35,990 nucleotides of DNA from Nanobdellota archaeon. Its GTDB lineage: Archaea; Nanobdellota; Nanobdellia; Woesearchaeales; B3-WOES. Shown piece after piece: positions 8,958-22,187 of this stretch; position 1 is the first letter of the stretch, and each line of letters opens with the position of its first letter. Both the position numbers and the translations under genes were made by a program. The notes beneath the pieces are model-generated. The model searched no databases, was not told where the DNA came from, and saw nothing but the letters and a program-made list of their open reading frames with translations. The stretch spans positions 1 to 35,990 of the forward strand of contig JAGLZG010000078.1 of the NCBI GenBank assembly GCA_023131705.1, given 5' to 3'.

Positions 8958-9869
8958 ATGAAGAGAGTCCTTGTTCTTGATGGAGGAGGAGCAAAGGGAG
9001 TGATCCAGTCTCAAGTCCTGAAGGATATTGAGAGGATCAAAGGCAGGAGGATCAGTGATATTTTTGATCTCATAGTTGGGACATCAGTTGGAGCTATTCT
9101 TGGAGGAATCTATGCATCAGGGAAGATGGATGCAAAATATATCCATGCTCTGCTGATGGACACTCTTCCAAAAGTGTTCAGGAAAAGACTGTTCAGGATT
9201 CCAAAATATAGCAGGAAGGCTCTTGACAATGTGTTGTCAAAGACAATTGGAAATGAATTCAGGATGAAGCAATGCAAGAGCAGATTCATTTGCACTGCTG
9301 TCAATATGGTTGATGGAAGGACTCACTATTTTAAAAGCTGGGAGGCTGTTGATGGAGAGCTCAGACTCAATGAGGCAATCACCAGATCATATGCAGCTCC
9401 TCTCTTCTTTGGATCAATAATTGACAACAAGAACAAAGCTGTCTGGCTTGATGGAGGGACAGGGAATGCCAATTGTCCTCTTCTGGAGGCTGTCATTGAG
9501 ACAGTCAGACAGAAGTGGCTGGGAGACAAGAATCAACATCAGAGTCCTGAGAAGGTTCATATCCTGAGCATTGGGACAGGTCACGTTGATTTCTCCATGT
9601 CATTCAAAAGAGCAAGGAGAGCAAGAACAATCAGGCAAGTCCTATTTTTCCTTGATCCGGCTGAGGGAGGACTGGCAAGGAACCAATCAACAGTGAGCAG
9701 AGTCCAGAAAATTAAGTCCCTCTCAACAATTATGAAAGAGCTCTCTTTCCAGAGATTGAATCCAGAAATCTCAAAAAGGCTGGACAGGATGGATGGAGTC
9801 CGATATCTTGAGACTTATCAAAATATAGGGGAATCCCTCTCAGACGGTATTGATCACTCCAAATTGTGA
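8958..9869 (+). CDS. Patatin-like phospholipase
   Basis: DGGGAKG oxyanion loop, GTSVG nucleophile elbow, SYAAP, DGG catalytic Asp; RBS CAGGAGG. Confidence 0.93.
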   Translation: MKRVLVLDGGGAKGVIQSQVLKDIERIKGRRISDIFDLIVGTSVGAILGGIYASGKMDAKYIHALLMDTLPKVFRKRLFRIPKYSRKALDNVLSKTIGNEFRMKQCKSRFICTAVNMVDGRTHYFKSWEAVDGELRLNEAITRSYAAPLFFGSIIDNKNKAVWLDGGTGNANCPLLEAVIETVRQKWLGDKNQHQSPEKVHILSIGTGHVDFSMSFKRARRARTIRQVLFFLDPAEGGLARNQSTVSRVQKIKSLSTIMKELSFQRLNPEISKRLDRMDGVRYLETYQNIGESLSDGIDHSKL

Positions 9870-10066: not shown

Positions 10067-10173
10067 TAAAATAAAAACAAATATAACTATAAATATAATG
10101 TATATTAACTATTATAAAATAGTCATTCTCAATGAGGCAACCTCAATCATTCAACCTTAACAAAGGAGGAAGT

Positions 10174-13292: not shown

Positions 13293-13333
13293 TTGCATTC
13301 TCCTCAACCATCATTATATTAATAGTTATATTT
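13293..13333 (+). promoter_or_regulatory. Promoter with downstream operator-like site
   Basis: TTGCAT-16 nt-TATATT followed by AATAGTTATA. Confidence 0.55.
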
Positions 13334-13368
13334 ATATTTATTAATCTTATCAAAGGAGGTTGGCACAT

Positions 13369-20118: not shown

Positions 20119-20296
20119 CTTCTTTTTTCCTGATCTGAAAGTTGCCGATCTGACAAATAAAGCAGATTCTGTCATGGATTTGCTTGTTGACTTTGGGATC
20201 ATCAAAGATGATTCATGGCTGGTCTGTCCTGAGTTGCATCTGTCAGGAGAGTTGAAGAGAGGCTCTGCTGGTTGTGAAATATTTATCTTAACATAA
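19922..20296 (+). CDS. rusA: RusA-family Holliday junction resolvase
   Basis: G.VPSKKNS start; DLTNKADSVMDLLVDFGIIKDD catalytic motif. Confidence 0.85.
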   Translation: MIRMLLEGRVPSKKNSQEIHKNRKTRQRWISPSKRFLQWRDQSMIQLMQQRIQRQSLQRVQKIKINFFFPDLKVADLTNKADSVMDLLVDFGIIKDDSWLVCPELHLSGELKRGSAGCEIFILT

Positions 20297-20307
20297 AAGG
20301 AGGAAGT

Positions 20308-20766
20308 GTGAGAATATCTAAAATCAAGAATCTCAAGAATTCCATTCTGATTGAATGGGAGACAAAGGAAAGCTCTGGGACTGTCAACTTTCATATGTTG
20401 GAATCAACAGAGAGAGCAAAGCCCACATTTTATCAGGCATTGCTGAAGCTCAGACCTTTTGTAATCCTAATGTGTGAGCTGGCTGATGGGTATGCTGAGA
20501 CAATGAGAGTCTCTGGAGTGTCACTCACAGAAGTTGGAGACTCCTGCTTGATGGGAGCAAAGATCACAGCAATTAAGAAATTGACAAAGAGTGATGATGT
20601 CATGAATGTGATCACTCCATTCAAATCTGCAAAGAATCCAGAGGACAAAAAACAGAATCCAAAAAAGATCATGCCTGAGAAGTGCCTCAAAGCAATCGGC
20701 AAGCTGATCTCTGAAGCTGAAGCATATATCAAGGGAGAGAGGGAGCAGACAAAGCTGGATATCTAA
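20308..20766 (+). CDS. Phage hypothetical protein
   Basis: GTG after AAAGGAGG; ends EAEAYIKGEREQTKLDI. Confidence 0.75.
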   Translation: MRISKIKNLKNSILIEWETKESSGTVNFHMLESTERAKPTFYQALLKLRPFVILMCELADGYAETMRVSGVSLTEVGDSCLMGAKITAIKKLTKSDDVMNVITPFKSAKNPEDKKQNPKKIMPEKCLKAIGKLISEAEAYIKGEREQTKLDI

Positions 20767-20817
20767 TAACTTACAAAGGCAGCAATTGAAACAGCTGCCA
20801 TTTGTATTGTTGGAGGA
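20764..20817. repeat. attC-like hairpin 1 (may also act as a terminator)
   Basis: AAC-t-TACAAAGGCAGC ... GCTGCC(A)TTTGTA-tt-GTT with one unpaired base. Confidence 0.55.
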
Positions 20818-20869
20818 AACTCCAAGATCAGAACAATTTTTATAGACGGCTAACCGATAAGGAGGTTTT

Positions 20870-21184
20870 ATGTTAATTAAAATGGATCCGTATGAAATAG
20901 TCAAAGTTTATGAATCAGCGAAAACTGTGCCTGAATTTACAAAAGTTCTTGTGGATAAGGGGGTGCATCCTGATATAGCGAATAAGTTGTGTCACGTTAT
21001 TGATGCCGCCGCTGATAAATGGGAAGTTGATCTTTCCGCATCCTCCAACAAATCAAGCCCAAAATATCCGAAGTTTAAAGATTTTTGGAAGTTGGTTCCG
21101 AATCGTGATAAAGCACTCGGTATAATGACTATGGATGAAATTAAACAATGGTCTGAAACGGTTTTTAGCGCAGCTCGATTATAG
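20870..21184 (+). CDS. Cassette A hypothetical protein
   Basis: RBS AAGGAGG; atypical codon usage (CG- and TA-containing codons). Confidence 0.75.
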   Translation: MLIKMDPYEIVKVYESAKTVPEFTKVLVDKGVHPDIANKLCHVIDAAADKWEVDLSASSNKSSPKYPKFKDFWKLVPNRDKALGIMTMDEIKQWSETVFSAARL

Positions 21185-21217
21185 TCGGATACTTCGGGCG
21201 TTGATCGCCGTTGTCAA
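21041..21217. repeat. attC-like site 2
   Basis: TCCTCCAAC-aa-ATCAAGCCCAAAATATCCGA ... TCGGATACTTCGGGC(G)TTGAT-cgcc-GTTGTCAA. Confidence 0.75.
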
Positions 21218-21255
21218 TAATTCCAAGCTCATAACGAAAATTGAAAGGATGCCAA

Positions 21256-21576
21256 ATGTTACTTGGTGCTAAAATTTTAAACAAGGATGATGGTTGGTGG
21301 CTTGAGGTTAAATCACCACTCGGATTAAATGGTATGATTAACTTGTCTAATCTTAATGGTGATATAATTCAACAGGCTTTTTGTCAGTGGGCTAATGGAA
21401 ATTGGTCTCACGAAAAAGAGGAAGCTGAACTTTCCACATTTGATAACAACGAAAGGGATGTAATTTGCTCCGATGATCTTTGCGACTATTGTGCCAATAG
21501 ACCAAAGCTTTGTAATTTCTGTGAGACAGGAATCTTTAATAAGTTCAAAGGCAGCAAACTGACACCCATTTCGTAA
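21256..21576 (+). CDS. Cassette B hypothetical protein with Cys-rich tail
   Basis: ATG after AAAGGA; atypical codon usage; CDYC..CNFC. Confidence 0.7.
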   Translation: MLLGAKILNKDDGWWLEVKSPLGLNGMINLSNLNGDIIQQAFCQWANGNWSHEKEEAELSTFDNNERDVICSDDLCDYCANRPKLCNFCETGIFNKFKGSKLTPIS

Positions 21577-21587
21577 ACGTTGTTTTC
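21440..21587. repeat. attC-like site 3
   Basis: TTGATAAC-a-ACGAAAGGGATGTAATTTGCT ... AGCAAACTGACACCC(A)TTTCGT-aaac-GTTGTTTTC. Confidence 0.75.
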
Positions 21588-21607
21588 AATAAAAAAGGAG
21601 GTTAATA

Positions 21608-21835
21608 ATGGCAGTCAAAGGATATGAGAAGGGATGCAGATTTGTCAAGGAGCATCCTGAGAATCCATGTTATTTGAGGGATGGAGATAGTGCTCTCATG
21701 AAGGTTGACAGGGGAGCTGTTGAAATATGCTCAACTTGCAGAAGGGAAAAGAGCAAGCTTGACAAGGCAATCACTGGAGAGCTCAAGGCAACTCTCCCAT
21801 CCACAACATTCAAAGACTCACTGAGGGAGGTCTGA
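21608..21835 (+). CDS. Hypothetical protein
   Basis: RBS AAGGAGG. Confidence 0.7.
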   Translation: MAVKGYEKGCRFVKEHPENPCYLRDGDSALMKVDRGAVEICSTCRREKSKLDKAITGELKATLPSTTFKDSLREV

Positions 21836-21839
21836 GCAT

Positions 21840-22187
21840 ATGGGACAGTGCATGAAGTGCGGAGCAGTGCTGGAAGGGACTGGGACAGTCTGTCCCAATG
21901 GTTGTCCTGAGCCTCAGCCAGCCTCAGACGATAGCAAGGATGCTGAGAGATATATGCTTGAATGTCCAGTTGTCACTGATGCCTGTCAGTGCCTGAAGTG
22001 CCCTCTCTTCACAAAGGAGGATTGTCCCAGAGTTGATCCAGCTCACAAGGTCATGTGTCTTCAATATGATCATGCTTATTATAATTTTTTGAAAGCAATG
22101 CAGGAATTCATTGACGAAAATGGATATATTAAAATAGGGAGGAATGATCTTGCAGCTGGAGCACCCAGGAGGATGCTGAATGTCTAA
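21840..22187 (+). CDS. Cys-rich hypothetical protein
   Basis: CMKC..CPNGC, CQCLKC. Confidence 0.65.
   Translation: MGQCMKCGAVLEGTGTVCPNGCPEPQPASDDSKDAERYMLECPVVTDACQCLKCPLFTKEDCPRVDPAHKVMCLQYDHAYYNFLKAMQEFIDENGYIKIGRNDLAAGAPRRMLNV

Follow-up and report, generated by a model that had tools for sequence, protein, structure and literature searches.

Positions 20810 to 21579 of the Nanobdellota contig JAGLZG010000078.1 are, in the reading that we favor with moderate confidence, two mobile gene cassettes that were acquired by a CpG-depleted phage and whose folded sites would be read by a putative site-specific recombinase acting in trans. The window, meaning the whole stretch of DNA that was analyzed, is an entire contig (C235; 35,990 bp) of a metagenome-assembled genome (MAG) of 1.31 Mb in 258 contigs (78.8% complete). 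The cassettes are probably integron-like, with sites defined by their structure that are not canonical attC sites.

RESULTS

A CpG island in a CpG-depleted phage

The contig is that of a phage, with every gene on the + strand and with baseplate, tail-fibre, endolysin, replication and recombination (exonuclease, RusA), terminase, portal, head and neck genes. Over the contig, 165 CpG dinucleotides were observed compared to 1,533 expected, with an observed/expected ratio (o/e) of 0.43 for TpA; in most contigs of the MAG the CpG o/e is about 0.28. We counted 29 CpG in 20810-21580 (o/e 1.05) and 136 in the remaining 35,219 nt (o/e 0.09; Poisson P = 3.5e-19). Since its CpG content is normal inside a CpG-depleted phage, this segment is recently acquired foreign DNA, and no other single observation on it is as strong. 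The CpG of the island extend from 20847 to 21578, and the closest ones beyond it are at 20697 and 21860. These limits are compatible with two GTT triplets named in an earlier note on this DNA, which had been made from the sequence alone and had described two units that coincide with a CpG-containing island and lack an obvious promoter. Both observations hold: the CpG counts bear out the first and, for the second, a scan of the + strand over 20767-21607 found no promoter-like site (20200-22000 contained 2, with 3.2 expected). The features of the segment are as follows.

20308-20766, + strand: native phage gene upstream of the island (phrog_9403, PHROG E = 6.3e-10; no CpG island)
20768-20811, + strand: site 1, 44 nt, AAC-TT-ACAAA-GGCAGC...GCTGCC-A-TTTGT-ATT-GTTG (fold, scanner, 0 CpG)
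20809-20832, + strand: 5' terminal repeat of cassette 1 (GTTGGAGGAAACTCC...), 17/24 complementary to 21026-21049
20810-21210, + strand: cassette 1, 401 nt, 21 CpG (CpG, junction motifs, cognate end pairing 17/24)
20870-21184, + strand: open reading frame (ORF) 1, 104 aa, with an AAGGAGG ribosome-binding site (ORF list)
21026-21049, + strand: 3' terminal repeat of cassette 1, ending in TCCTCCAAC (pairing with the 5' repeat)
21047-21212, + strand: site 2, 166 nt, AAC-AA-ATCAA-GCCC...GGGC-G-TTGAT-CGCC-GTTG (inverted repeat, scanner, homologues)
21211-21579, + strand: cassette 2, 369 nt, 8 CpG (CpG, junctions, end pairing)
21256-21576, + strand: ORF2, 106 aa from ATG 21256, or 111 aa from TTG 21241 (ORF list)
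21445-21581, + strand: site 3, 137 nt, AAC-A-ACGAAA-GGG(A)TGT...ACACCC-A-TTTCGT-AAAC-GTTG (fold, scanner, covariation)
21580-21835, + strand: native phage DNA resumes (TTGTTTTCAATAAAAAAGGAGG, then an ORF at 21608-21835; next CpG at 21860)

Hairpin sites of the window

The three imperfect inverted repeats of the earlier note stand with their coordinates and motifs, as a scanner of our own (see below) returned exactly 20768-20811, 21047-21212 and 21445-21581. Site 1 has a fold energy of -10.8 kcal/mol on either strand (z -4.1 and -3.3; shuffled sequences as good in 0/200 and 2/200 cases) and site 3 one of -23.4 and -23.3 kcal/mol (z -3.9 and -4.2; 0/200 on each strand). In contrast, site 2 as a whole is no more stable than shuffled sequence (z +0.2 and -0.2; 115/200 and 79/200). 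Thus, of the shuffled controls that the note had put forward, those for sites 1 and 3 favor its claim and those for site 2 do not. The long-range stem of site 2 is present in the minimum-energy fold; it is 13/15 complementary (21057-21071 with 21185-21199), includes two top-strand A-C mismatches, and is accompanied by a 5-bp stem and a bulged G. Site 3 contains an inverted repeat of 78% (21449-21466 with 21557-21574). From A-C mismatches the note had argued that the bottom strand is the one that folds. The two mismatches of site 2 are there, but the argument fails across the family, as energies are equal on both strands and a site-3 relative has a top-strand G-T wobble.

Site 3 contains 5 CpG, a number improbable at the native rate (P = 2e-4), and is therefore foreign; site 1 contains none. 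Site 1 is likely the recipient site, with a G/TT crossover at 20809/20810, and the corresponding G/TT crossover of site 3 was placed at 21579/21580. No Rfam family matched the sites, the only hits being two sub-threshold chance matches. An exact 12-nt direct repeat, CAAAGGCAGCAA, occurs at 20774-20785 in the left arm of site 1 and at 21546-21557 near the right arm of site 3; we estimate that chance would give about 0.04 of them in 1.2 kb.

Relatives carry the same sites and share a cassette

The last ~47 aa of ORF2 are encoded by site 3, and a scan of JGI metagenome contigs with this tail returned three loci, L005, L006 and L007, each of at most 2.3 kb. The site-3 family recurs at L005 1706-1836, L006 1036-1166 and L007 608-738; moreover, a site-2 homologue lies at L007 291-449 and a site-2-type right end at L006 34-53. 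Sites like those of the window, for which the earlier note had proposed a search, are thus found in three other metagenome contigs, and these comparisons make the observation considerably stronger. In L007, the site-2 homologue precedes the site-3 homologue in the same order as in the window, their ends being conserved and their centres different, and additional sites are present. L006 holds three or more cassettes in an array. All of the junctions read C followed by GTTG, with a start codon about 25-45 nt downstream.

A block of 375 bp is 100% identical between L005 (1460-1834) and L006 (790-1164), with unrelated flanks on both sides. It starts with GTTG and ends in ...AAACG, at the G before the next (G/T)TG, so that the breakpoints in relatives fall at G/TT(G), as the note had anticipated. 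In L006 the block lies within the array; in L005 it stands between unrelated genes with no hairpin upstream, and its right flank reads G/GT, implying that this insertion used a nonstandard target. Site 3 is followed by different downstream sequence in 4/4 loci, yet remains linked to the upstream ORF in L005 and L006. These comparisons show the cassette to be a discrete unit with G/TTG limits. The note's description of two discrete foreign cassettes that end in structured sites accordingly agrees with both the CpG content and the breakpoints in relatives.

Searches of other collections did not extend the family. In IMG/VR, the tail patterns gave no match, the site-2 right-end pattern gave 59 stretches with the left arm in 0 of them, and the single stretch returned for the 5'-end motif was a chance match within a large gene. 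No copies of the sites were found in GTDB representative genomes or elsewhere in the MAG. GenBank phages gave none by blastn of L006 and L007 or by tblastn of the tail, and PLSDB gave none by tblastn of the tail.

Two further ORF tails of L007 (at 1325-1350 and 1572-1592; ...RVAIC...) are similar to the left arm of site-3 sequences. Of the two, the tail that ends at 1692 in ...GTAACCGTTG appears to be a degenerate relative of site 3, and the other has no recognisable right arm. Downstream of the array, L007 2010-2250 holds 63-nt tandem repeats (94-98% identity) in an open-ended ORF with weak leucine-rich-repeat and pentapeptide matches.

A conserved site architecture

All sites follow a common layout, in which AAC and 1-4 nt precede a 4-6 bp stem whose right arm carries one unpaired purine; a second stem and a variable centre lie inside it, and 3-6 nt and GTTG come after the right arm. 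We wrote the scanner from the window sites and one L006 site (AAC, 0-4 nt, 4-6 bp stem, one unpaired right-arm base, second stem, 3-6 nt, GTTG). Among the 11 complete sites of the window and L005-L007, the unpaired right-arm base is a purine in 11/11. The ends are AAC...GTTG in 9/11; L005 1706-1836 ends in GGTG, and L007 897-1006 has AAT...ATTG. These observations confirm what the earlier note had listed as departures from attC, namely, short spacers (1-4 and 3-6 nt) and a single extra base on the right arm.

The fair tests of the architecture are two sites found de novo and a polarity control. Indeed, after the pattern had been fixed, the scanner found L006 663-792 and L007 2-69 at GTTG-marked junctions. 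In the polarity control, a pattern with the extra base on the right arm matched 8 distinct sites on the ORF strand and 0 on the other, compared to 1 and 1 with the extra base on the left arm and 0 and 0 with no extra base. The background in the rest of the MAG was 83 matches in 2,550,434 strand-bases, or 0.33 per 10 kb. RNAalifold, applied to three distinct site-3 DNAs, recovered the same outer helices. The site architecture is conserved and covaries.

The two ends of a cassette are complementary

According to the earlier note, the sequence at a GTT is complementary to the left end of the following site, with 9/9 and 7/8 matches. The 9/9 match (GTTGGAGGA with TCCTCCAAC) is real and belongs to an inverted repeat of 22/29 (20802-20830 with 21028-21056), whereas the 7/8 match is not significant alone. 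Within 100-600 nt, a 9/9 match is found for 4/365 GTT positions on the + strand and 4/345 on the - strand, which is uncommon, not rare; a 7/8 match is found for 86/365 and 77/345.

In 8 distinct cassettes, the first 24 nt from GTTG were set against the 24 nt up to and including the AAC of the same cassette's 3' site; the L005 cassette, which is identical to one of L006 (L006-C), was left out. Cognate ends were complementary at 13-21/24 positions (mean, 16.6), and the 56 non-cognate pairings had a mean of 10.0 (p = 5e-5; 20,000 permutations). The complementarity noted earlier thus holds over ~24 nt and not only 9, compared to 7 nt for attC; to our knowledge, 24-nt cognate repeats are not a described attC feature, although we made no search on this point. 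Moreover, a site folds more stably with its own 5' end than with that of its neighbour in 7/8 cassettes, and the neighbour's end gives no more stability than random ends or those of other cassettes.

Since the repeats bound the ORF and not the hairpin, a palindromic element resembling a miniature inverted-repeat transposable element (MITE) is ruled out. Repeats that bound the ORF are what a circularly permuted unit, such as an excised circle, predicts, and cognate end complementarity is consistent with a circular intermediate. Pairing between Shine-Dalgarno and anti-Shine-Dalgarno sequences was considered as a cause of the terminal repeats and rejected as a general explanation, as by eye it applies to only 2-3/8 cassettes. 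A cognate 5' repeat for site 1 was also sought; the best candidate, upstream of the gene at 20308, pairs at 14/24, which is at background (mean, 14.5), and we do not claim this upstream gene as an older cassette.

Cassette ORFs read through their sites

All 8 cassette ORFs cross the left arm and centre of their own site and stop within ~25 nt of the junction, and the frame in which they read AAC varies. Neither ORF1 nor ORF2 belongs to a Pfam, PHROG or NCBIfam family, and neither has an atlas lead. The only homologues of ORF1 are P0002 and P0008, whose similarity to it covers the first 57 residues and stops precisely at the left boundary of site 2. The N part of ORF2 has no homologues; those of the entire protein share only the tail encoded by site 3, their own N parts being mutually unrelated.

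A profile built from three site-3 tails was run over 1.84 billion representative proteins. At E <= 1e-3, 55 proteins were found, 50 of which are 61-124 aa long with the tail at the extreme C terminus; BLASTP sorts the 49 N parts that reach 15 aa into 47 unrelated groups. Two residue pairs of the tail covary in these related sequences. At the first pair (before the conserved R and the last residue), we counted E-S/L 24 times, A-A 11 times, and E-A and A-S/L 0 times each (Fisher 2e-9); at the second (before the conserved I and after KL), V-T 23 times, E-S 12 times, V-S 4 times and E-T 0 times (5e-7). Base pairing was deduced through codon positions fixed by the amino acid, the assumed codons being present in all three DNAs available. 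Read in this way, the covariation agrees with compensatory Watson-Crick base pairs. Mixed combinations such as A-A with V-T and E-S with E-S are present, implying more than one compensatory event.

One tail protein, P0009, matches the Lar restriction-alleviation model over positions 1-54 of 55, and the match ends by residue 63 of its 118, with a score of 35.8 bits (cut-off, 39.6) and a phrog_599 match of E 1.3e-8. The tail is thus an addition to a domain that is already complete without it. The tail matched no Pfam family. As a folded domain it was rejected, since the AlphaFold2 model is of low confidence, with predicted local distance difference test (pLDDT) values of 54-66 and no confident fold.

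Recombinase and crossover position

No integrase is encoded in the window (no PF00589 match), in agreement with the earlier note. The single tyrosine recombinase of the MAG, on contig C223, is Xer-like and in two pieces, scoring 118 and 102 bits against the IntI model (TIGR02249; cut-off, 265), and no serine recombinase or Y1 transposase was above cut-off in this 78.8% complete MAG. L005-L007 are too short to judge a linked integrase. An enzyme moving these cassettes must act, or have acted, in trans. The note had proposed an integron-type recombinase of the host or acting in trans. Its interpretation is supported in part, for the mobile cassettes and their structured sites but not for IntI as the actor, the MAG having only the Xer-like protein at 118 bits.

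In canonical attC sites, the bottom strand is recombined and is cleaved in its AAC (Nivina 2016). Here it is the ORF-sense strand that has the geometry of the canonical bottom strand, and a canonical IntI would thus be expected to cut the left AAC. However, the L005/L006 block, the linkage of site 3 to its upstream ORF and the CpG content of sites 3 and 1 (5 versus 0) argue for a crossover at the right-hand G/TTG.

DISCUSSION

Comparison with known systems

Integron-type cassettes in a phage without an integrase are not new in themselves: clusters of attC sites lacking an integrase (CALINs) were described in 17 phages, and IntI1 recombined 5/6 of the phage attC sites tested (Qi 2023, PMC9892861). 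The window shares with integron cassettes small promoterless ORFs in one direction, imperfect AAC...GTT hairpins with an unpaired base, G/TT limits, a sequence after GTT that complements the next left end, conserved structure with variable sequence, and presence in phages without integrase. Of the properties that define attC, we found the AAC/GTT ends, the G/TT limit (inferred from breakpoints) and the cognate complementarity, and did not find the core consensus, the arm of the unpaired base or the spacer length. Indeed, attC has 2-3 unpaired bases on the coding-strand AAC arm, a 5-6 nt central spacer in each arm and the core RYYYAAC/GTTRRRY (Nivina 2016). Here there is one unpaired purine on the crossover-side arm (11/11 sites), spacers are 1-4 nt on the left and 3-6 nt on the right, and the core is CAAC/GTTG(T); the R' sequence is GTTGT or GTTGC in 10/12 junctions, and only GTTGG fits GTTRRRY. 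Moreover, the ORFs here cross the whole site, unlike those of attC cassettes. No IntI, attI or Pc, as a complete integron would have, was seen.

IntI is also able to place cassettes elsewhere than in att sites, at GWT (Loot et al., bioRxiv 10.1101/2022.09.11.507474). The L005 cassette, alone outside an array, and the recipient GTT of the window, which fits the GWT core, resemble such attG/SALIN situations, but the right junction of L005 is G/GT and not GWT. PeSLs of T4-type phages have a sigma-70 promoter and a terminator, and recombine by homology with mini-circles formed (Arbiol 2010, PMC2839356). The likeness lies in small accessory ORFs, located in plastic regions of phages and bounded by conserved stem-loops, and in circular forms proposed as vectors; in contrast to PeSLs, the units here have no promoter, site types unrelated in sequence share one architecture, and cognate inverted repeats lie at the ends. 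A literature search found no published description of this site type. In the portions of the literature compared, we found none of the purine-bulge geometry, the short unequal spacers, the CAAC/GTTG core, the ~24-nt repeats or the sites embedded in ORFs.

Rickettsia palindromic elements, Correia elements and MITEs are hairpin segments in which inverted repeats bound the element itself. Such elements are similar in being hairpin segments of 100-170 nt translated within ORFs beside unrelated genes. They differ in that the long repeats here bound the ORF, and no target-site duplication was seen.

Alternative explanations

It is conceivable, though unlikely, that these are ordinary integron cassettes, a CALIN moved by the standard IntI of some host with sites inside the natural variation of attC. 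The AAC...GTT ends, the hairpins with unpaired bases, the same-direction arrays of promoterless ORFs and the G/TT limits would all fit, as would the CALINs of 17 phages with 5/6 tested attC sites recombined by IntI1 (Qi 2023) and insertion by IntI at GWT, which the recipient GTT of the window fits (Loot 2023 preprint). Against this stand the lone unpaired base, which lies on the arm opposite that of attC, spacer lengths of 1-4 and 3-6 nt instead of 5-6 (Nivina 2016), R' sequences of GTTGT or GTTGC in 10/12 junctions where GTTRRRY is expected, and the lack of an IntI in the MAG. AttC-like sites could also recombine at the left AA/C, in which case a cassette would be a hairpin with the head of the next ORF, and each ORF would take its tail from the next cassette. 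Such a crossover suits the canonical bottom-strand geometry of the ORF-sense strand, the one N part of P0002 and P0008 with its different tails, and the near-identical site-3 tails after at least four unrelated N parts. We nevertheless regard it as improbable, for the 375-bp block starts after one hairpin and includes the whole of the next, site 3 keeps its upstream ORF in L005/L006 and has a different downstream in 4/4 loci, and it is site 3, with its 5 CpG, that is foreign, site 1 having none.

An equally improbable explanation dispenses with a dedicated recombinase: terminator-like hairpins would mark boundaries at which cassettes are shuffled by homologous or illegitimate recombination, as for PeSLs. 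Mosaicism at gene borders is common in phages, PeSL recombination yields mini-circles (Arbiol 2010, PMC2839356), a candidate ERF-type annealing protein is encoded on L005 (judged from its translation alone), and site 1 lies after a stop codon in the manner of a terminator. However, the units have no promoter-like element, the left junction of L005 has no homology to L006 beyond GTTG, and homologous exchange does not explain cognate complementarity or a single unpaired purine of fixed polarity. That the conserved 3' segments are chiefly protein modules, such as a Cys-rich C-terminal tail, with incidental hairpins, seems very improbable to us. All 8 ORFs do read through the site, and certain residues are invariant across 43 tails; but the other site types share the architecture and share neither peptide nor frame, the covariation matches Watson-Crick partners, and the tail has neither a fold (pLDDT 54-66) nor a Pfam family and follows an already complete Lar domain. 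Chance, finally, would have hairpins and junction matches arise as in any AT-rich phage sequence. The ordinary fold energy of site 2, the commonness of 7/8 matches and the occurrence of 9/9 matches at 1.1% of GTT positions are what it would predict. We give it practically no weight, as it is refuted by the shared 375-bp block, the permutation test of cassette ends (p = 5e-5), the 50 proteins with the tail, the homologous sites in three contigs and the CpG island (P = 3.5e-19).

Proposed mechanism

The cassettes favored here would each comprise a ~24-nt 5' repeat starting with (G)TTG, a ribosome-binding site with a small ORF, the same repeat in inverted form, ending in CAAC, and a hairpin site through which the ORF reads. 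A site-specific recombinase acting in trans would recognise the folded site and exchange strands at G/TTG, so that a circular cassette would be released from between two adjacent sites. In the circle, the cassette's own terminal repeats would pair and lengthen the stem of the hairpin, after which the circle could enter a further site of this kind or a GTT. In the window, insertion would have occurred into the GTT at the foot of site 1, just 3' of a native gene, and the promoterless cassettes would be read from phage transcripts. We infer the circular intermediate, the folding of single strands and the kind of recombinase, which is most likely a tyrosine recombinase related in its logic to IntI but suited to a different site geometry.

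Several points weigh against this reading. No recombinase was found in the window, and the sole candidate of the MAG is Xer-like. Only four DNA loci carry sites. No circular junction, precise deletion or variant was seen in the assembled contigs of the source run, the one run that contains this stretch, a result that is uninformative on excision. P0002 and P0008, with their identical 56-aa N part and different tails, fit a crossover at the left AAC better. Window cassette 2 is the exception in the comparison of ends, with a pairing of 14/24 and a fold of -21.7 kcal/mol with its own end compared to -23.8 kcal/mol with that of the neighbour. The scanner pattern was fitted to some of the sites it scored, which overstates their independence; likewise, the covariation was read from amino acids and not from DNA, and as the sequences are related, the Fisher tests overstate independence. 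Finally, the invariance of I, C.YC, F.G, L and P in 43 tails is conservation of a protein-like kind.

A bolder version is possible but doubtful. The cassettes may belong to a system of the phage world that is integron-like without being an integron, with hairpins of reversed polarity, a purine bulge by the crossover, ~24-nt repeats that zip together only in the circle, sites in the 3' ends of genes and a recombinase of its own, and it may spread small counter-defence genes, for example of the Lar type, among uncultured phages.

Integrons are the textbook case of recombination sites that are recognised by their folded shape and not by their sequence. If the favored interpretation is true, phages hold a second family of such sites with another geometry, and structure-read cassette exchange is broader than IntI and attC. 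It would also point to a definite way in which phages exchange small accessory genes; a Lar-like anti-restriction gene is carried by one relative of the cassettes. Moreover, a CpG-free phage is a natural marker of recent gain, in which foreign cassettes become visible base by base. The cassette family is known only from metagenome proteins and contigs; the queries used did not find it in IMG/VR, GTDB representatives, GenBank phages or PLSDB, and current integron surveys based on these collections would therefore have missed it.

Other features of the phage contig

Relatives of the phage were sought in several collections: no DNA match was found in GenBank phages, and the flanking phage proteins had no match in IMG/VR, in the family of the MAG (2 genomes) or in 401 genomes of its phylum. 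An 829-nt contig of the source run (depth, 7.8) matches 20725-20760 (36 nt, one difference) and diverges at 20760, just short of the upstream gene's stop codon. Its source may be a related phage in which the downstream region differs.

Certain other contigs of the MAG (C117, C20, C164, C169, C2 and C189) have a CpG o/e of 0.06 or less. Such CpG-poor contigs may reflect avoidance of a CpG-directed host defence or may be further pieces of the same or related phages. Within the window, the intergenic stretch at 250-415, upstream of an ORF at 415-1167, belongs to a region with 7 CpG in 300 nt of an otherwise CpG-free genome; no hairpin site of the cassette type was found at 250-415.

A 293-aa protein encoded at 10328-11209 matches phrog_6247, "DNA topoisomerase" (E 2.9e-112), and is without a Pfam, NCBIfam or PDB-sequence match. 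It was considered as the cassette recombinase and rejected, with only a weak atlas lead (TopoVI-A/Spo11 Toprim, 0.88) and no tie to the sites. A 31-nt inverted repeat (90% identity; 10070-10100 and 13312-13342) flanks 3.2 kb with this topoisomerase-like gene and a DUF932 gene. Directly 3' of the endolysin-like gene lies a gene for a patatin-like phospholipase (8958-9869; PF01734, E 2.6e-17).

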